Assembly (NCBI GenBank): GCA_001599295.1 | Contig: BCGN01000002.1 | Location: 1,612,001 to 1,676,000 of the forward strand | Reading direction: 5' to 3' | Length of the DNA: 64,000 nt | Source: Sporopachydermia quercuum | Lineage: Eukaryota | Shown: positions 9,697-55,910 of the stretch, one piece after another | Position numbering within the stretch: position 1 is the stretch's first letter | Layout of the letters: each line of letters opens with the position of its first letter | Program-made: the position numbers and the translations under genes | Notes under the pieces: generated by a model | Databases searched by the model: none | Told to the model about the DNA's origin: nothing | The model's input: only the letters and a program-made list of their open reading frames with translations

Positions 9697-11562
9697 ATGA
9701 GTGGAAGTGATAAATTGAAACAGAATGCTCCGAAAAGAAAAGTGAGTCAGTCAGCTTCAGAAGGGGGTGGAAATGCAAGGGCTAAGAGGAGTCGACTAAA
9801 TTCTTCACCACCAGGACCATCTTCATCATCTCTAGAAGCAGAGAATATACCTTTAGCTCAAGTTGAAGCTGTTAAAGAAAATGGCCTTTCCAAAAATTTT
9901 GGACTAACAATATCTACTTTGGAGTCAGTAGAGTATTATGTATCGCAGTTAACCAATGCAGTGGAAAATATCATACAATTTGCACCCACACAAGAAGTGA
10001 ATGATAGGATTCTGAATTCTGAATCTTCAAACTCAACGGAACTGATTCAAACACTGTCTAGAAAGAAAGTTCAATTGGCAGTATTGTTGAAGAATGTCCA
10101 CACAAAAGGTCATTTGAAACTTTTTGATCAACTACTGGAGTTTACAAAAGCTCAAGATTTGCAGAAACTATCCAATTTGAGTGATAAGGAGAATGAAATA
10201 AAGAAACCATCAACTATAGCGATAGTAAAAGCACAGACAGGTGTGAAGAATTATGATCCTGGACTTGGATCATTCCCTTCATTACCAGAGATTAATAATA
10301 AGGCATTAGAGTTTCAAGTGTTCAGTCATAAGTCCCGGATGAACGATAAGGACTATCTAACAGATGAAGAACGAATATCTGGTAGCAACGAACGGTTGGA
10401 ATTCTTAGGAGATTCAATTCTTGGTACGGTGGTGACAGAAACACTATTTGACAAATTTCCTTACGCTAGAGAAGGAGCATTGACAAAGTTACGATCGAAA
10501 TGTGTTTGTAATGATACTCTAAGAAAATGGGCTGAAGCTTATGAGTTTCCCTCTCGTATTTTATTTGACGATAAAAAAATACAAGCATTGAGAGTTAAGA
10601 CGAAAGATACTGACAAACCTGAGAAAGAAAGTTCAACAGTATTAGAAGAAGTCGCTGCAGGAAAAGGGAAAATTTTTGCTGATGTGTTGGAGGCATATAT
10701 AGCAGCCGTCGTGCTTGATTCTGAGAATGGAAGACAGGTGGCTACTAAGTGGATTCAAGCTTTGATTAAACCACTTATAGATAAGGCAGAGTGTACGCTG
10801 AAAAACGAAAGGCTCAACGAAAATGCCAAGAACGTTTTATACTCTAAAGTGGGATCAGCGCAAACTCCCATTGAATATTTACGCGTACGAAAAGGTGACG
10901 GTCAAAAAATTGATTATGTTGTGCATGCTCGTATAAATGGTACTGTCGTAGGTAAAGGTAGGGGAAAAAGTGAAAAAGATGCAAAGACACGGGCTGCCAT
11001 GGATGCTTTAGCAAATGAAGAGCTGATTGAACAGTTTGCATCAATAAGGAGAGAAAAGCCAAGATCAGAAACAATGATTAAAGAGGAAGAGAGACAAGAA
11101 ACTGTGACATCAGTGATCAAATACCCTTTAGTTCAGAATGATGGTGATAATAATGGTTACGTAGAGAAACCTCTATCTTCCCCGAAATCTGAAGTAGTTG
11201 CACCTATAAGAAGGAATGCTGTTCTACTGGATTCTCTAACCGATAGTTTAGCTGATAAAAAGTTTTCTGAATTTTTTGCGAAAACGGTGATTCAAGATAT
11301 GCCTGATGAAGAAGTCTCTCCTGATGCCAAACAACGACTAGTACAAGAATGTAACAATAAACCTTTAGGACGACCTATCTATAAACATGTGGCGATTCAT
11401 GAGACTATTCCTTATCCGGAATTTGAAGCAAATGTATATCTAAAAGGAGTTTTAGTCGGGAAAGGAGTAGGTAGAAGTAAAAGAGCTGCCGAAAGAAAAG
11501 CCGCTGAGATCGCTTTGAAAGGTATCAAGCTTTTTTATGGTACAGATAAAAAAGGACAATAA
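9697..11562 (+). CDS. DCR1: RNase III of the Rnt1/budding-yeast Dicer (Dcr1) family with two dsRBDs
   Basis: One RNase III domain (NERLEFLGD, KIFADVLEA) and two dsRBDs (GKGRGKSEKDAKTRAAMDAL; GKGVGRSKRAAERKAAEIAL); no helicase or PAZ domain seen. DCR1 versus RNT1 naming is uncertain. Confidence 0.85.
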   Translation: MSGSDKLKQNAPKRKVSQSASEGGGNARAKRSRLNSSPPGPSSSSLEAENIPLAQVEAVKENGLSKNFGLTISTLESVEYYVSQLTNAVENIIQFAPTQEVNDRILNSESSNSTELIQTLSRKKVQLAVLLKNVHTKGHLKLFDQLLEFTKAQDLQKLSNLSDKENEIKKPSTIAIVKAQTGVKNYDPGLGSFPSLPEINNKALEFQVFSHKSRMNDKDYLTDEERISGSNERLEFLGDSILGTVVTETLFDKFPYAREGALTKLRSKCVCNDTLRKWAEAYEFPSRILFDDKKIQALRVKTKDTDKPEKESSTVLEEVAAGKGKIFADVLEAYIAAVVLDSENGRQVATKWIQALIKPLIDKAECTLKNERLNENAKNVLYSKVGSAQTPIEYLRVRKGDGQKIDYVVHARINGTVVGKGRGKSEKDAKTRAAMDALANEELIEQFASIRREKPRSETMIKEEERQETVTSVIKYPLVQNDGDNNGYVEKPLSSPKSEVVAPIRRNAVLLDSLTDSLADKKFSEFFAKTVIQDMPDEEVSPDAKQRLVQECNNKPLGRPIYKHVAIHETIPYPEFEANVYLKGVLVGKGVGRSKRAAERKAAEIALKGIKLFYGTDKKGQ

Positions 11563-28213: not shown

Positions 28214-28943
28214 TTTATTTTCAATGGCTATGTTCCGACTCTCTATATTTGCTGTCTCAGTGCTGAATAAGTCAGAACTTCAGTGACTATTGGCCATCTT
28301 GACTAACGATGTCGTTCTTCCGTCTATCTGTTGTGTGATGTAGATTCAATAATAGATTCCCTCAGTTTAATACAAAATAATCCAAAAAAAAACACTCCAA
28401 AATATTATTTTTTAGTATTTCTATTATATTAGTATTATATCTGAGAATCCTATTATAAAAGGAAGGTAATCAATCCAAATCTGGGGCAAGAACTACCTCA
28501 CTTACTATAAGTCTTAAAATTGACTTTATCGTGCAATTCGTTGAGTTAAATGAAGATCGAGCAGACAGTTGACTTTATAGATTAATTCATGGTTTGCACC
28601 ATATAAATACTCAGTAACAATAGAATTTGAGCCTCAAAAACTATATAATAATGAGAAGATATATAATAGTTCCTACCAATACTTTCTATGATATACTCTT
28701 TTGTCATCTTACAAACTCCAAGGTAATAGATACTTTTCTTTGCTTTACCTGGCATGATGGGTAATGAGACAAGATTCCCTTAATAGTTACCCTATTCCTT
28801 CACGTGCTATAAACAATGAATCATTTCATTGTCAGTACTTTACTGATTATGTAACCATAAATGAGTTGGTTGTAATGAGACCCTTATGATTCTGCCGTGG
28901 ATACACGGATGGAGTCTTGTTGAACACATTTATTGCGTAGAAA

Positions 28944-28951
28944 CAGTCACA
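28944..28951 (+). promoter_or_regulatory. Homol D box upstream of the snoRNA host gene
   Basis: Exact CAGTCACA about 300 bp upstream of the first donor; TCACGTG at 28800-28806; followed by a long pyrimidine-rich tract. Confidence 0.55.
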
Positions 28952-29299
28952 GAGACTGATTGTCCGAGACTTTTGGCGGACAGCTTGTTTGTTTCTTGAG
29001 ATTTTTTTATTGAAACTTTTTCACTTCTTGTTTGAGCTTTCCTTTTTGTTGGAATTTTCTTCCTTTCCTCTAACTTTCTTCTCACTGATAACTTTCGGAC
29101 CATTATTTTGTTATTGGTTTTTCAGGCTTGAGTAACAAGTGTTCATTCTTAGTTGGATGGGTCTTGAGTATGAATGGATGTCTTCCGTTAGTATAGACAT
29201 TATTCATCATCCGTAAGCGTAGAGAGATGGATGATATATAGTTCCTGATAAAAGGTAAGAATTGATTGATACTTTNATTTATAAATTGAAATTGATGAG

Positions 29300-29386
29300 T
29301 TTAAATGATGATTGAACAAAACAAAGCTGGAATTACTGGCAGAACTATAGTGTTGAGAACCTTTTGGTACCATACGCCGCTGAAAA
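29300..29386 (+). ncRNA. SNR77: Box C/D snoRNA snR77 (guide for 18S Um578, S. cerevisiae numbering)
   Basis: C box ATGATGA 29305-29311; guide AGCTGGAATTAC complementary to 18S GTAATTCCAGCT; D' CAGA 29340-29343 (fifth nucleotide pairs with U); D box CTGA 29380-29383. Confidence 0.9.
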
Positions 29387-29501
29387 CTAATCAATTTCAA
29401 ATGAATTAGCGAAGATAACTTACTAATTTTGTTTGAGAAAGTTGTGACTAACAATTGCATTAGGTATGGATCATTCTAGTTAAAAAATTTACTTTGTAGT
29501 G

Positions 29502-29587
29502 TTGAGATGAAGACTCTAAGCACTGGGCACCGATACATAATGAGTGATAATGCTTAGTGGGCCTAGAAAACCCACGTTACAGATCAA
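29502..29587 (+). ncRNA. SNR76: Box C/D snoRNA snR76 (guide for 25S Cm2197)
   Basis: C box ATGAAGA 29507-29513; guide AGCACTGGGCA complementary to 25S TGCCCAGTGCT; D' CCGA 29530-29533; D box CAGA 29580-29583; terminal TTGA/TCAA stem. Confidence 0.85.
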
Positions 29588-29748
29588 TTGCAATGGAACA
29601 ATAAATAATAGAATCAAGGTGAAAGTAACCACATTATAGAGCCAGAGATTAACCAATGTTTTAGATGAATGGAAATTGTTTTCTATATGATTGCTATTCT
29701 AAATTGTAAGTATACTGAGAAGTTCTTTCAACCCGCAAGCTTATTTAC

Positions 29749-29836
29749 CAAAGTGATGATATTCTTAGATGACGAGTCGGATGGGTTTCCTACTGACGAT
29801 AAAACTATTTAATTACCATTCATGCATTTCTGATAT
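29749..29836 (+). ncRNA. SNR75: Box C/D snoRNA snR75 (guide for 25S Gm2288)
   Basis: C box GTGATGA 29753-29759; guide TTAGATGACGAG complementary to 25S CTCGTCATCTAA; D' CGGA; second rRNA-complementary element CCATTCATGC; D box CTGA 29830-29833. Confidence 0.92.
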
Positions 29837-29987
29837 TTGTATTTTAATTTGCGAGTTCATTCTGAGTAATTTCAAGAAAAATCGTATTATTAGGAATCAA
29901 AGCTAACCAATAAATTTAGTGTAGAACATTTGTTTTCCAATGTATTGTTTTGGTATGGAATGCTTTAACTAAGCTTCGTTANATAGT

Positions 29988-30060
29988 CGCAGAAGATGAA
30001 CATTTTAAAATTTTGACAAGCATATGTCTGACTATTGATGAATTTTTTATGTCTGATGCG
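29988..30060 (+). ncRNA. SNR74: Box C/D snoRNA snR74 (guide for 18S Am28)
   Basis: Terminal stem CGCA/TGCG; degenerate C box AAGATGA; guide GACAAGCATATG complementary to 18S CATATGCTTGTC; D' CTGA 30028-30031; C' TTGATGA; D box CTGA 30053-30056. Confidence 0.92.
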
Positions 30061-30195
30061 TTTATTTGATGATACTACTAAATCGTTCTAGACCGGACTG
30101 AATTCCCACTTTACAAAGTTCCCTTAGGGAAGTAAATAAGGTAAGCTATTTCGAGAGTATATAAACCTCCATTTGAATATTGAGTAGCTTGTTAA

Positions 30196-30293
30196 ATCGC
30201 ATGATGATCTCTCCACAACTCACGACGGTCAACTGTGTCCGAAATACGGACGTTGATGATAATCAGCCTGTGACAAGGCGTGGAAACTGAATC
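30196..30293 (+). ncRNA. SNR73: Box C/D snoRNA snR73 (guide for 25S Cm2959)
   Basis: C box ATGATGA 30201-30207; guide CTCACGACGGTC complementary to 25S GACCGTCGTGAG; internal GTCCG/CGGAC hairpin; C' TTGATGA; GCCTGTGACA element; D box CTGA 30287-30290. Confidence 0.9.
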
Positions 30294-31108
30294 AAGTGAA
30301 GCCTTATTCATATGGAGTGTGCTTTATTGTATTAGTTTCATGCGTTACAATTTATTAACCATCCGTTAGTTTCCGATGTTCATAACAACATATAACTTCT
30401 GTATATAAATTATTCTACTTGGATTGTAGTCGCTGCCAACAGATATCAATTGTAAGGATTCTCCCATAGAGAATCGTTAGCTTTACTGTAAGGATGTTGA
30501 AACATTGAAGTATTATTTAACATTATATTTCATTCTATTTACGAAATCGCTTAAAAAAAGAAGCTCTGTCTCCCTTTCGACTATAGATTGACATATAGAT
30601 CAACTACTTAGTAATAACACTATTATTCTAACCTTCTCAGTAGTCTCTCCTTTCAGTAATGCATTACTTTATAAGAAGCCACAAATCTTTGAATCCAATA
30701 TCAATTGTCTTTTATAATCTCTATGCGCTACTAAAATCAGAGACAAACACTGCCTGCTCCTTTAATCTACTATCATCAAAATTAGTATCATGTTGCATGT
30801 TAAATTAAATAACTATTCATCCTGTTGCCTCACCTCCATTTCAGCCCTTCATATCTCAATTAGTTTATTTAAGATCTCCAGACACCCCCAATTAATGATT
30901 AGAAATCAACAAAAGAAAAAAAAAGACAACTTCACACTAAATGTGAATTGATTGATTGTAGATTTAAACAATCAGTTTACCTGATATGAAACAAGCAGTT
31001 GGGTTGCAAAAGAACAAATACAATCGCTTTGATTGCATTGTTATTACTTTCAGTAGGCCAGTAATCTGCGAATCATAGTTTCCAGGCTGATAAAACTCTA
31101 CACACACA

Positions 31109-31734
31109 ATGGATTTTGGTACTTCAGTAAGTCAGGATATTAATGCAATAGATATGTGATGTGATGTGATGTGATGGCATATATGTCATGAAATGGAATA
31201 CAGTGGTACCTATACTATTGATTTCTGGGGAACTACAAATTTAAGGATGTACTAACAATATTCAAATAGCTCTCAAGAATGTCATCTTACATTCAGAATA
31301 CGCCGTTTGCAAATATCAGACCAGTGTCTGAGTTTTTGGCACCCACAAGATTGTCAGTCCCATCATTCTTAGTTCTTCAAACTCGAATTCCCTATAATCT
31401 AGGTTATTTTTCATCTAACTATGCGATAATTNTCCTGTTATTGAGTCTTTATGCTCTNCTGACGAATTTATTGTTACTATTAGTACTGACTGTGGCTATT
31501 GTTGGTATTTATGGTATTTCATCTCTTCGTGGAGGTGACCTTACATTCTCAACTGTAAGAATTACAACTAACCAACTATATACAGCATTGTTGATTATCT
31601 GCACACCATTAATACTCATTGCAAGCCCCATTTCAACTTTACTATGGCTTGCTGGAACATCAGCTGTGATAATTTTATTTCATGCAGCATTGCTCGATCG
31701 ACCTGCTCAAACCGCGTTTGCTGATGTTGTTTGA
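31109..31734 (+). CDS. YIP3: PRA1-family Rab-interacting membrane protein; exons 31109-31126 and 31270-31734
   Basis: RPVSEFL, RIPYNLGYFSSNY and LFHAALL PRA1 motifs; intron 31127-31269 GTAAGT/TACTAAC/TAG keeps frame. Confidence 0.9.
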
Positions 31735-31888: not shown

Positions 31889-32605
31889 TCATACGTCTGT
31901 TGATCTTTTAGAATTACACGCGACAATCTTAACCATATCAGCATGAACTTTGTCACCATTGTCTAATTTGAAATCAGCATTCTCCACCAAAAAAATCCAA
32001 ACGTCGTCGCAAAATCTATATGTATGTAAATGTGCCTTAGCTCTCGGTTAGCACATTATTTATTTCCAAGAAACTCTCCGAGATTCCTCCGAACCACCAA
32101 CAATCACATACCTTGAAAGAAAGCTTCGATTTCACCCTTTCACGAAGGGAGTCGGTTACAGCCTTGTCGAACTGTCCTAAGTTAGTANCATCATTCTTCT
32201 ATAGCAGAGCAACATATCAGGGTAAGCATAAACAGAAGTAGAAAATGACCTTAGCCAATACCTGAACATACATTGTGAAGAACCTTCATGGCCAACTGGG
32301 GAGGAATCCTCTCATCCCTGTTCATACTTGTTAGCAAAATGTTCCACCATATACTCTAAAGCTTTCCTACATAACTAACTATCTATCCCAAAGGAAATAA
32401 ACCATACATGATCAAACTATCCAAGGCATCGGTGAGAGCTGTTCCAACACTAGATTTAAAGGTTAATAAGTGCACTCAGCATGACGCACAATTGACTCAT
32501 GACAATTCTGCTCGTAAGCTGCTATCTCTAATTCTTCACATACGTGCTCATACGATACAACTCATAGTTACCAGAACTATTGACTGCTGATAAAGCTTCT
32601 GCCAT
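31889..32605 (-). CDS. TOA2: Transcription factor IIA small (gamma) subunit; exons 32544-32605, 32408-32449, 32272-32317, 32112-32171, 31889-32035 (absent from ORF track)
   Basis: Spliced 118-aa product ...[74 protein letters not shown]...KIVACNSKR; all four introns have GT..branch..AG and phases are consistent. Confidence 0.96.
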
Positions 32606-47732: not shown

Positions 47733-47826
47733 TGCTTCGTGGGAGGATCGAACTCTCGACCTTCAGATCACACAGCTAAGTTTATACAGTATGAGACTGA
47801 CGCTCTACCGACTGAGCCAACGAAGC
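47733..47826 (-). tRNA. Elongator tRNA-Met(CAT) with a 21-nt intron (47769-47789)
   Basis: GCTTCGT/ACGAAGC acceptor stem (G1:C72), TGGCTCAGTCGG A box, GTTCGATCC B box, anticodon CAT at 47791-47793, intron after base 37, T7 terminator. Confidence 0.97.
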
Positions 47827-48114: not shown

Positions 48115-49362
48115 TTACAAGAGCTTTGCTGATTCCTCTTCAGGCAAAGAGTCAGAACTATAAGAACCACTGGGAAACATTGATGAAACTTTATCCGTAG
48201 ATCCAAGCTCATCAAAAGTGGGTGTTGATGGAGACGGCATCCTTGTCTGTACAAACTCGTTATTGTCAAGAGAAGATACTTTGACTACGTTCATAGTCCC
48301 AGATTCGATTCCTTGACCATCTTTCCGAACTTCATTTCTCTCCCGATGATGCCCATCATCTTTATCAGATTCGTTTACTACTCTGGGACCGGGATTTGCT
48401 CCCGGCTCTGAGCCTGAATCCGAGTCTGAGTCTGAGTCTGAGTCTGAGTCTGGCTTTGAGCTTGAACTTGAATCTGAACTAGAAGCAGAATCTTCATCTA
48501 AATCAGACTTACTAGTCGAATTGCTCTTTTTTGGTTCAACATCTTCGACAGTGAACCCATTGACTGTGACAGTCTTCAGGATATCGCTCTGTTTACAACT
48601 CGCTGTATTTATTTTAATAGAATTAGCCCATATGATACTTTCACGACTTTCCAGTTTCACCATATAAAATGTAGGAAACTCGATTACCACCTGGTCTTTT
48701 AAAACCTCTCCTAGTATTCGACTAGACGGTGAACTGGTATTCTGTTCTGAATCCCATACTTTGAGTACTCTGAGATTTTTCGAATCTGCTAGTAAAAATA
48801 TTAACCAATTATTGTCTTCTTCCGTATCTCCTTCTCCAGTAGTCAGCTCCATCTTCTGTAATGCTTTTAACAAAAAATCTACTACCAACGATCGCTCACC
48901 AATTCGATGGAANAGCAGCTTTCCTAACACATTACTACCTGGGTCTACTGCAATTACTTCAATAGTCCATTCGTACTCCCCACTGGACTTATTCCAGTCA
49001 CTCCTATTCTCTATAGACCTCTGTAAACCGGACGGAGCTAACTTCACTTTCACACCCCTTCTATATTCATCTGATGTTGAGAGTCGCTTACGACTATTTC
49101 GGCCATTGAACTTCTTAAAAACGGGTTCCTCCTTTTTCAAGTGGATCGCCCTATCAAGTTGTTGCAAAAACCTATAGTCTCTATTCAATACATTCGGATT
49201 CTCAACTATTTCACCTGCAGGAACATATTTTGTTGGATCAATCAAGCCTTTACAGGAGTACTTTAGTTTATGGTTCTTTGAACATCGAAGAGAACATGTT
49301 TGCCTTTCGCATGCGGGACACTTGTACTTCGATTCACTGAGGTGACATATCTCACATAACAT
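48115..49362 (-). CDS. BCD1: Box C/D snoRNP assembly factor Bcd1 (zf-HIT)
   Basis: CEIC...KYKCPAC...TCSLRCSKNHK zf-HIT domain, RDYRFL and VIEFPT motifs; syntenic with VMA10-MSC7-RRF1. Confidence 0.92.
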   Translation of the reverse strand: MLCEICHLSESKYKCPACERQTCSLRCSKNHKLKYSCKGLIDPTKYVPAGEIVENPNVLNRDYRFLQQLDRAIHLKKEEPVFKKFNGRNSRKRLSTSDEYRRGVKVKLAPSGLQRSIENRSDWNKSSGEYEWTIEVIAVDPGSNVLGKLXFHRIGERSLVVDFLLKALQKMELTTGEGDTEEDNNWLIFLLADSKNLRVLKVWDSEQNTSSPSSRILGEVLKDQVVIEFPTFYMVKLESRESIIWANSIKINTASCKQSDILKTVTVNGFTVEDVEPKKSNSTSKSDLDEDSASSSDSSSSSKPDSDSDSDSDSDSGSEPGANPGPRVVNESDKDDGHHRERNEVRKDGQGIESGTMNVVKVSSLDNNEFVQTRMPSPSTPTFDELGSTDKVSSMFPSGSYSSDSLPEEESAKLL

Positions 49363-49822: not shown

Positions 49823-50413
49823 ATGGTATGTTCTTGACATGGGTGATGAATCGACGAGATAAAAGATACGTTGACTTTGNCGAAACTAATACTAACCGGA
49901 TGATTAAAGTCTTCTAACAATGGGATTCAAATGCTTCTCGATGTATGTTGATACTCTTTGTGAATTGATTAAGTGATTCTTGGTACGGTTGCAGGGCAAC
50001 TCAGATTTTCTAACATCTCTACTCAGGCCGAAAGGAAGGCACTAGAGATTGTTGCGGAAGCAAGAGCTTGTAAGTAGACTTTGCTGTGATAAACAATATA
50101 TATATGTGGTATATGTTGTGAATAACAGTTCACTAACAGAATAGATCGTGCACAAAAGTTGAAGGCCTCAAAGGCTGATGCCGCTAAGGAAATCGAGACA
50201 TACAAAGCAAAGAAGGATGAAGAACTTAAAAAATATGAAGCAAAGCATAGTGGTTCTAATGTGGAATTAGAGAAAAATGCAGAAGAAACAATCAAGAAAA
50301 GCGTTGAGGAAACTAAGAAGCTTGCAGTTACTCATAAAAATGAAGTCGTCAAGATGTTATTAGATGCTGTGATCAAACCTGAACCAGCTCTTCATACAAA
50401 TGCTTCTTTCTAA
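49823..50413 (+). CDS. VMA10: V-ATPase V1 subunit G; exons 49823-49825, 49910-49942, 50027-50069, 50145-50413
   Basis: Spliced 115-aa product MSSNNGIQMLLDAERKALEIVAEARAYRAQKLKASKADAAKEIETYK...; three introns with consistent phases; first exon is ATG only. Confidence 0.95.
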
Positions 50414-54453: not shown

Positions 54454-55910
54454 TTTTCTTATTTACAGAATAAATCTGCTTATCTAACTTTCAGAATCCC
54501 CAATAATTTCAAATTGGTTGGTGCATATATTGCATACTCTGCTTGATAAAATAACCAGCATGAAAGACCCTGCATGATCATCATCGGAACCAATGGCTTA
54601 TTCAACGATTATGTGATCAAAAGGTGAAGAAATTTGGATGAGATCATGTGATCTAGTACAGAGCTTCGAGAAGCAACTACAGGAGTTCTGAGAACCGGAA
54701 GCAATTTAGATAGAACTAGAAAGTGTCGTAATAGGATATTTATGGATATTATTTAAAAGAACTATCACGACAACTCCTGTATAAATTTTGACAATTTTTA
54801 ACATTAATATTGATTGCTGTGTTATATTTATTAGCATTTCTAGTTTCTTTCATTTGACCCTATCCTCGCCGTGCTTCTCTTTACCAATGGTTCGTTTCAG
54901 CAGAGACACAGCGTAAAGTGCATACCATGCCTAAAGGGAAGAATTTTTCATAAGCGATTACTGTCGAATGGTGGACAATGGGCACAGTATATAATTTAGC
55001 TTTCTCGTCTTTCTCTTTCCTCTTCATTTCTTCTTCTTTCTTTAATGATATTTTCTAGTACTGTTGTGGTATATTACCCAAGTTAATTTAAACAAACAGT
55101 TTGTTGAATAAATATACAATATTGAACTTGTCAGTATTATAACCGATAAGAATAAATATGATCCAACCCCATAGTCAACTTAGCCATGAACTAGTTTTCA
55201 TCACAGGTTCTATCTTACCTACCATTTTATTCGTAATTGTTTAATAAATGGTTTTGATTATACGCGTTCAAGAGATATATGATGGGAAAAGTCATCAGAG
55301 TCCCGCAAATGGCATATTTGATTTGAAATTTGTTGTTAAATCATATCATATGTACATTATTATCTTTTCCTTACCTTCGTTCGTAGGATACTATTACCAG
55401 GACATTTTGCCTTCGCTGAAATTATATCATATGTTTTCAGGGATAACTGTTGACCTGGAAGATTAAAAAAAATGACTATTCAAGTAATTGAACATTCATT
55501 TTTTTGGTTTTCTCCACCTTGGTTGAAGTATTTCAGTATTCTTCCAGGACTAAATCACTAACCGATATTCACCATTTTGTAGGACTGTTATCAATAAGTA
55601 ATTGCAATATTTTTTAATATTTTTTAAGTAAGCTTAAACAAGTACAATAAGAATAAACTAAAAACATAGAATGGTCTTTATTATTGTGATTGTACAACTA
55701 AATATAAACTTTTAACAATTAAAACGTATTATTACACTAAAATCATCTATCAGTAATATTATCAATGCAGATGTATGAATATTAGCATGGTTGATCAAAG
55801 AACACTTTAATCGAATTAAGAGATAGTAAACAAACTGATGAACTGATTTAAATAAACATGAATAAACAATTATGCGACGGGAAGAAAACTTCAACATAGT
55901 CTCAAAATAA

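Follow-up and report, generated by a model that had tools for sequence, protein, structure and literature searches.

The window considered here, by which we mean the whole 64-kb stretch of contig BCGN01000002.1 of the yeast Sporopachydermia quercuum that was analysed, carries on its plus strand, at 29301-30292, five genes for small nucleolar RNAs (snoRNAs) of the box C/D class. We scanned the whole window against Rfam at the gathering thresholds and the interval 28400-31400 with more permissive settings. The snoRNAs follow each other in the 5' to 3' order snR77, snR76, snR75, snR74, snR73, which is the order of the core of the fungal snoRNA cluster I, and are separated by spacers of 116-163 nt (Table 1). 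A first-pass annotation, made from the letters of the sequence, had proposed five C/D snoRNAs in this very order and had suggested an Rfam search for snR73 to snR77, and the search bears out both the set and the order. Four of the five RNAs score above the gathering score of their family, and the fifth, the snR74/U27-type RNA, falls narrowly below it, its match having an E-value of 3.9e-7 in the 3-kb search and of 8.4e-6 in the whole-window search. This RNA has a terminal stem of 4 bp and contains the conserved D' guide block. The matched family, SNORD27, is the U27 family, which includes snR74 of yeast.

In the Rfam alignments the snoRNAs exhibit boxes C and D plus internal boxes C' and D', with variants at some positions. 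snR76 has CCGA as box D' and CAGA as box D, whereas all four comparator loci aligned with it (see below) have CTGA; box D' reads CAGA in snR77 and CGGA in snR75. Either the second position of the boxes has become relaxed in this lineage, or the variants could be due to base-call errors. The assembly contains scattered Ns, with 56 single N positions across the 64 kb, two of which (29276 and 29982) fall within the locus, both in introns and outside the snoRNAs. The conserved guide blocks of the Rfam consensus are matched letter for letter, e.g. snR76 contains GCACUGGGCAC as well as GGGCCUAGAAAACC, and snR74 contains ACAAGCAUAUGUCUGA. The guides of snR74 and snR77 also appear to match segments of the 18S RNA covered by standard primers.

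Two further families, snR78 (RF01176) and the snoZ122/snR72 type, gave no match in 28400-31400 at E<=10, and both are absent from the whole 64-kb window at E<=0.5 and from the flanks of the locus at E<=10. Between 28650 and 29300 no snoRNA family was found at E<=10, bar one chance-level match on the minus strand, and 30293-31110 contains no RNA family beyond one chance-level match. Two snoRNA-like stretches near or in the putative first exon (28870-28960 and 29160-29250) were inspected and discarded as nothing convincing was visible, either by eye or in Rfam.

Table 1. Features of the snoRNA locus, with positions in the window.
Feature	Position	Strand	Basis and details
snR77-type box C/D snoRNA	29301-29385	+	Rfam RF01181, 57.8 bits (gathering score 50)
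snR76-type box C/D snoRNA	29502-29587	+	Rfam RF01209, 78.5 bits (gathering score 55); aligned with 4 comparators
snR75-type box C/D snoRNA	29751-29835	+	Rfam RF01185, 72.9 bits (gathering score 40)
snR74/U27-type box C/D snoRNA	29988-30060	+	Rfam RF00086 SNORD27, 49.4 bits (gathering score 52)
snR73-type box C/D snoRNA	30191-30292	+	Rfam RF01207, 59.2 bits (gathering score 37)
Putative first exon of non-coding host gene	28990-29254	+	Sequence reading; 28990 is a placeholder 5' end
Predicted intron 1, 209 nt	29255-29463	+	Donor GTAAGA 29255, branch GACTAAC 29446 (A 29451), acceptor TAG; holds snR77
Predicted intron 2, 201 nt	29464-29664	+	Donor GTATGG 29464, branch GATTAAC 29647 (A 29652), acceptor TAG; holds snR76
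Predicted internal exon, 41 nt	29665-29705	+	Splice-motif positions
Predicted intron 3, 214 nt	29706-29919	+	Donor GTAAGT 29706, branch AGCTAAC 29901 (A 29906), acceptor TAG; holds snR75
Predicted internal exon, 33 nt	29920-29952	+	Splice-motif positions
Predicted intron 4, 139 nt	29953-30091	+	Donor GTATGG 29953, branch TACTAAA 30076 (A 30081), acceptor TAG; holds snR74
Predicted internal exon, 49 nt	30092-30140	+	Splice-motif positions
Predicted intron 5, 229 nt	30141-30369	+	Donor GTAAGC 30141, branch TATTAAC 30353 (A 30358), acceptor TAG; holds snR73
Putative last exon	30370-30620	+	Sequence; 30620 is a placeholder 3' end
Next gene, PRA1/YIP3-like	starts 31109		Gene model

Each of the five snoRNAs is bracketed by a complete set of splice signals, with a donor of the type GTAWG upstream and, downstream, a branch motif (xxxTAA followed by C or A) that is followed after 10-13 nt by TAG. 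Every donor and branch motif quoted in the first-pass annotation was found at its position. The distance from the branch A to the G of TAG is 12, 12, 13, 10 and 11 nt in introns 1 to 5, respectively, and the donor precedes the snoRNA by 35-50 nt in all five introns. The snoRNA's 3' end is located at a regular distance of 77-84 nt from the 3' splice site in four of the introns, and at 31 nt in the intron of snR74. When the exons are joined, with the placeholder ends of Table 1, the longest ATG-initiated open reading frame (ORF) comprises 24 amino acids (aa), and no Pfam family was detected across 28585-30948 in any stop-to-stop frame with a length of 45 aa or more; the host exons are without protein-coding potential. 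At 28802-28814, ~450 nt upstream of donor 1, CACGTG is immediately followed by TATAAA, a pair of motifs that may represent the promoter of the host gene.

The splice signals of the locus can be compared with those of coding genes in the same window. We located intron-bearing coding genes by Pfam and derived 13 introns from them, keeping the frame open and restoring the expected N-termini. The introns belong to TOA2 (four introns; 31889-32605, minus strand), VMA10 (three introns; 49823-50410, plus strand), ARMT1/DUF89, UBC, PRA1/YIP3, RPS14, RPL39 and RPL28. Their donors are GTATGT (8), GTAAGT (4) and GTATGG (1), their branch motifs TACTAAC (6), CACTAAC (2), TGCTAAC (2), GACTAAC (1), TATTAAC (1) and TTCTAAC (1), and their acceptors TAG (7), CAG (4) and AAG (2), the branch A being 8-17 nt away from the acceptor. 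That GTATGG, GACTAAC, GCTAAC and TATTAAC also occur in coding introns of this window had been noted before, and the derived introns confirm it: GTATGG is the donor of TOA2 intron 2, TATTAAC and TGCTAAC are found in TOA2 introns, and GACTAAC is found in the DUF89 (ARMT1-like) gene, with the spliced frames of TOA2 and DUF89 remaining open. The splice signals of the host gene are within the range of the 13 coding introns, but they are weaker. With their four and three introns, TOA2 and VMA10 are intron-rich for a budding yeast, and AAG seems to serve as 3' splice site in TOA2 intron 4 as well as in the first intron of VMA10.

As control for chance occurrence we used an ordered pattern consisting of a branch core, a gap of 5-16 nt, YAG and then a GTAWG donor. 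This pattern is present in all four inter-snoRNA spacers, compared with 2.9-6.6% of the dinucleotide shuffles (5000 per spacer) and with 41 of 2473 background windows of 135 nt taken from the same 64 kb (1.7%). The arrangement of the splice signals is clearly not random.

Comparator loci were obtained by scanning metagenomes with a pattern made from two snR75 guide blocks, which yielded 110 loci, 20 of which were run against Rfam. None of the 110 loci comes from a close relative, the best ones (L016, L042, L075 and L029) having 73-88% identity within the snoRNAs. Among the 20 loci one is Saccharomyces-like (L016), three others are yeast-type (L042, L029 and L075) and 16 have Aspergillus-type family names. 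L016 contains seven snoRNAs and reaches very high scores with the Saccharomyces-seeded models (snR78, snR77, snR76, snR75, snR73 and snoZ122). In L042, L029 and L075 sets of donor, branch and acceptor can be read by eye around the same snoRNAs as in the window. A regular expression tuned to the spacing in the window detected ordered signals in one or two of the four spacers of these three loci, counts that are lower bounds (the snR77/snR76 junction of L042 was missed, though seen by eye), and in none of the six spacers of L016. We also surveyed the flanks of snR75 in 83 distinct loci, in which a loose bracket of donor and branch/YAG occurs 60 times compared with 17.8 expected from shuffles and a strict pattern 10 times compared with 1.2 expected, the survey being crude and its patterns too loose or too strict to show more than a general enrichment.

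Introns 1 and 2 of the host gene abut: the acceptor TAG at 29461-29463 is followed without a gap by the donor GTATGG at 29464, leaving an exon of zero length that is not mentioned in the first-pass annotation. Its claim that every snoRNA resides in its own intron agrees with the separate donor, branch and acceptor of each of the five, and requires that introns 1 and 2, being adjacent (TAG/GTATGG), are removed stepwise, i.e. by recursive splicing. The order would most likely be 5' to 3', because joining of exon 1 (...AAAAG) to GTATGG regenerates a donor. By eye, the same exon-less junction between snR77 and snR76 is seen in the metagenomic yeast loci L042 (CACTAAC aatatag/GTATGT) and L029 (AACTAAC tggtgttttag/GTAAGT), and L075 has a normal exon between the two introns. 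The recurrence in two environmental yeast loci suggests an old origin for the zero-length exon between these introns. An alternative acceptor for intron 1 (branch TACTAAT 29421, acceptor GAG 29435-29437, resulting in a 26-nt exon) was set aside because GAG is absent from the 13 coding acceptors and because L042 and L029 likewise have abutting introns. In L029, at 2073-2130, the last G of a TAG acceptor is also the first letter of a GTAAGA donor, corresponding to an exon of negative size.

Taken together, the locus is very probably the local representative of the fungal snoRNA cluster I, with a single non-coding host gene and each of the five snoRNAs in a separate spliceosomal intron. The splicing-dependent architecture that the first-pass annotation had deduced is supported at the level of sequence by the splice signals, the non-coding exons and the lack of AGNN-capped stem-loops (see below). 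We computed the identity and order of the snoRNAs, the architecture and non-randomness of the splice signals, the coding potential and the occurrence of Rnt1-type stem-loops, and from these we infer transcription as a single unit, splicing and its order, debranching and trimming, the mechanism following what is established for the biogenesis of intronic snoRNAs. RNA polymerase II would produce one non-coding transcript from the plus strand, extending from ~29.0 to 30.6 kb, in which the introns are the useful products. Splicing, with stepwise removal of introns 1 and 2, most likely in the 5' to 3' direction, would free each snoRNA in its own lariat (introns of 139-229 nt; 0, 41, 33 and 49 nt for the exons in between). 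Each lariat would be debranched by Dbr1 and then trimmed from both ends by exonucleases until these are blocked by the assembled core of the C/D small nucleolar ribonucleoprotein (snoRNP), and the spliced exon RNA, being non-coding, would presumably be discarded as a by-product.

Several observations weigh against this architecture. The pattern of the shuffle test was defined after the data had been seen, so that the product of the probabilities overstates the significance and the joint probability of ~2e-7 is optimistic. T at position +6 is found in one of the five host-gene donors compared with 12 of the 13 coding donors (Fisher p 0.008), and, given these donors without T at +6, some splice sites of the host gene may be weak. 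The putative exon 1 contains two donor-like sites of its own (GTATGA, 29168; GTAAGC, 29213), rendering the boundary of the first exon uncertain. Intron 4 has TACTAAA as branch motif, whereas TAAC ends the motif in all 13 coding introns, and its snoRNA, snR74, ends just 21 nt before the branch A, compared with 65-71 nt in the other four introns. Finally, a gene for an RNase III of the Rnt1 family is located in the same window (9697-11562, plus strand), so that absence of the enzyme is no argument against endonucleolytic processing.

The presence of this enzyme is one of the points in favor of a Saccharomyces-type intronless polycistron, in which an RNase III of the Rnt1 family cuts the precursor, exonucleases trim the products and the splice-like motifs are relics or due to chance. 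The best solved relative of the encoded protein is Rnt1 of S. cerevisiae (E 2e-43; Pfam RNase_3_N and Ribonuclease_3), and four of the five donors are off-consensus at +6. Introns of such clusters were reportedly lost through decay of their splice signals (Mitrovich, in 2010), and if so, intermediate states should exist. Stems capped by AGNN are, however, found in none of the four spacers of the window in minimum-free-energy folds, compared with three of the four spacers of L016 that were folded, where the stems have AGUA or AGUU caps and 8-12 pairs. Moreover, an ungapped scan of 28990-30620 returned no AGNN hairpin, and the folding z-scores of the window spacers are unremarkable (-0.25 to +0.76). 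The two loci thus differ in the number of snoRNAs (five here, seven in L016), in the AGNN stems and in the splice signals, which are present in all four spacers here and in none of the six of L016. Five complete and correctly ordered sets of signals are improbable as relics, and GTATGG as well as the same branch variants function in coding introns of this genome, as indicated by the open spliced frames. We thus regard processing of an intronless polycistron as very improbable. The RNase III itself comprises 621 aa, in which Pfam recognizes an N-terminal domain of the Rnt1 type, a single RNase III domain and two stretches of double-stranded RNA-binding domain (dsRBD), and its similarity to S. 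cerevisiae Rnt1 is ahead of that to K. polysporus Dcr1 (E 1e-24). In having a second dsRBD, this Rnt1-like enzyme is reminiscent of the dual-function Dcr1 of Candida.

The peculiarities of intron 4, i.e. its branch motif and the short distance from snoRNA to branch, would also fit a mixed state, in which most introns are spliced and one or two, with that of snR74 as best candidate, are spliced inefficiently, the snoRNA being released from the precursor or from RNA with a retained intron by a splicing-independent route. In L042 (reverse strand, 2071-2323) snR74 seems to be exonic, as it lies between the acceptor of the snR75 intron and the donor of the snR73 intron, with no donor between that acceptor and snR74. 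Candida cluster I is just partly intronic and exon skipping occurs there, according to Donovan 2016 (PMC5033589). Intron 4 of the window, however, keeps GTATGG, a donor that is used in TOA2, a TAG 10 nt past the branch A and the 4-bp stem of its snoRNA. It shows no sign of inactivity, and we consider a mixed state improbable.

Many yeast snoRNAs are monocistronic, and this is the sole, non-specific point in favor of five independent snoRNA genes that have their own promoters and terminators and are clustered by chance. Such genes would leave unexplained why acceptor and donor signals, in the proper order, occupy the short spacers of 116-163 nt. In addition, according to Canzler 2018 the same order and spacing persist throughout Ascomycota in a single transcript. 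We consider independent genes extremely improbable.

The proposed spliced host gene with one snoRNA per intron has counterparts in several known systems. The mammalian UHG/U22 host gene and GAS5 likewise carry one C/D snoRNA per intron, their exons lack an ORF and are poorly conserved, and the introns are the functional part; in contrast to the locus described here, mammalian introns are far longer, the set of snoRNAs is different and the host gene is not homologous. The SNR78-SNR72 polycistron of S. cerevisiae resembles the locus in that homologous snoRNAs are found in the same order on the same strand, ~0.1-0.2 kb apart; its processing was reportedly traced to Rnt1 and Rat1 by Qu et al. in 1999, and in our comparison L016 stands for it. 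An intron-encoded cluster in the Candida clade is said to have been described by Mitrovich in Science in 2010. UHG is also mentioned in Luo 2013 (PMC3596301).

The background given in the first-pass annotation, namely that the S. cerevisiae cluster is intronless and cut by Rnt1 and that the intron-encoded form is considered ancestral, agrees with Donovan 2016 (PMC5033589) and Luo 2013 (PMC3596301). Luo 2013 (PMC3596301) analyzes cluster I (snR78-72) across fungi, and according to both papers (PMC3596301, PMC5033589) the cluster is intron-encoded and spliced, as determined by RNA sequencing (RNA-seq), expressed sequence tags or reverse transcription PCR, in Candida species, D. hansenii, Y. lipolytica and filamentous fungi. 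In C. parapsilosis splicing of cluster I was demonstrated by RNA-seq, and recursive and nested splicing were observed in cluster II (Donovan 2016, PMC5033589).

The cluster I of the Candida clade (C. albicans, C. parapsilosis, C. orthopsilosis as well as L. elongisporus) resembles the locus in its snoRNA families, their order and the non-coding transcript. It also has mostly one snoRNA per intron and tiny exons, its splicing was shown by RNA-seq, and branch variants such as GACTAAC have been reported for it (PMC5033589). Differences exist in three respects. First, the yeast described here is not a CTG-Ser yeast (see below). Second, the 5' splice sites of the C. parapsilosis cluster I conform to the consensus (PMC5033589), whereas four of the five differ here at +6. 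Third, the Candida cluster also contains snR78 and, in most species, snR72, neither of which was detected in the 64-kb window. Membership of snR78 and snR72, which is thus not seen here, is a variable feature and is absent in several published species: C. parapsilosis, Y. lipolytica and M. guilliermondii have a cluster I without snR72 (Donovan 2016, PMC5033589), and the cluster of K. capsulata is likewise described in the literature as having no snR72.

The abutting introns have a published counterpart, too. In clusters II and III of D. hansenii and Y. lipolytica juxtaposed introns are removed stepwise in 5' to 3' direction or by use of alternative acceptors (PMC3596301), and the TAG/GTATGG junction between snR77 and snR76 is of the same kind as in these clusters with lost internal exons, in which introns lie side by side. 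The experimental cases of Luo 2013 (PMC3596301) are clusters II and III, whereas the junction described here is part of cluster I. The architecture, including the loss of internal exons, is already published, and the locus is a further example of it, as expected for a yeast outside the Saccharomycetaceae.

The window itself provides information about the lineage. In ISW1, which has nine CTG codons, CTG is found at a conserved Leu in all five positions checked, so that CTG is read as Leu and the organism is not a CTG-Ser yeast. The window further contains the gene for the 75-kDa subunit of complex I (Pfam), and the best named homologues of its TAP42 are from Ogataea and Kuraishia with just 41-43% identity, so that the matches include no named yeast that is closely related. 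Reading of CTG as Leu, the complex I subunit and the TAP42 homologues together indicate a budding yeast outside the Saccharomycetaceae and the CUG-reassigned clades.

For the root of Ascomycota, Canzler 2018 places a core of five genes, 77-76-75-74-73, the same set that is found here. The locus might be a bare and fully intronic five-snoRNA core that was kept from the ascomycete ancestor and to which snR78 and snR72 were never added, as opposed to a product of secondary loss, and the relaxed +6 position of the donors could mark slow splicing that is tuned to snoRNP assembly; we consider this unlikely. If it were true, the ancestral cluster proposed by Canzler 2018 would survive in this yeast, and the locus would bear on the two alternative histories given there for the entry of the guides for 25S-2421 and 25S-876 into the cluster.

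The value of the locus is modest in that it adds one data point to the snoRNA clusters kept in introns of non-coding host genes outside the Saccharomycetaceae, complementing the published account in which splicing was replaced by RNase III cleavage in the Saccharomyces lineage. The lineage added is intron-rich, reads CTG as Leu and keeps a gene for a complex I subunit. For annotation it is relevant that gene finders will miss the host gene as well as its five snoRNAs.

Three further features of the window concern RNA genes or their processing. A BCD1 homologue with zf-HIT and BCD1 domains, i.e. an assembly factor of C/D snoRNPs, is encoded at 48115-49362 on the minus strand, 18 kb from the cluster, a proximity that is probably a coincidence. 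A tRNA gene that is interrupted by a 23-nt intron lies at 47733-47826 on the minus strand (51.8 bits with the tRNA family of Rfam). At 55469-55570 on the plus strand the H/ACA-type family S_pombe_snR92 gave a weak match (29.4 bits compared with a gathering score of 80; E 0.077), which is possibly a diverged H/ACA snoRNA or a chance match.

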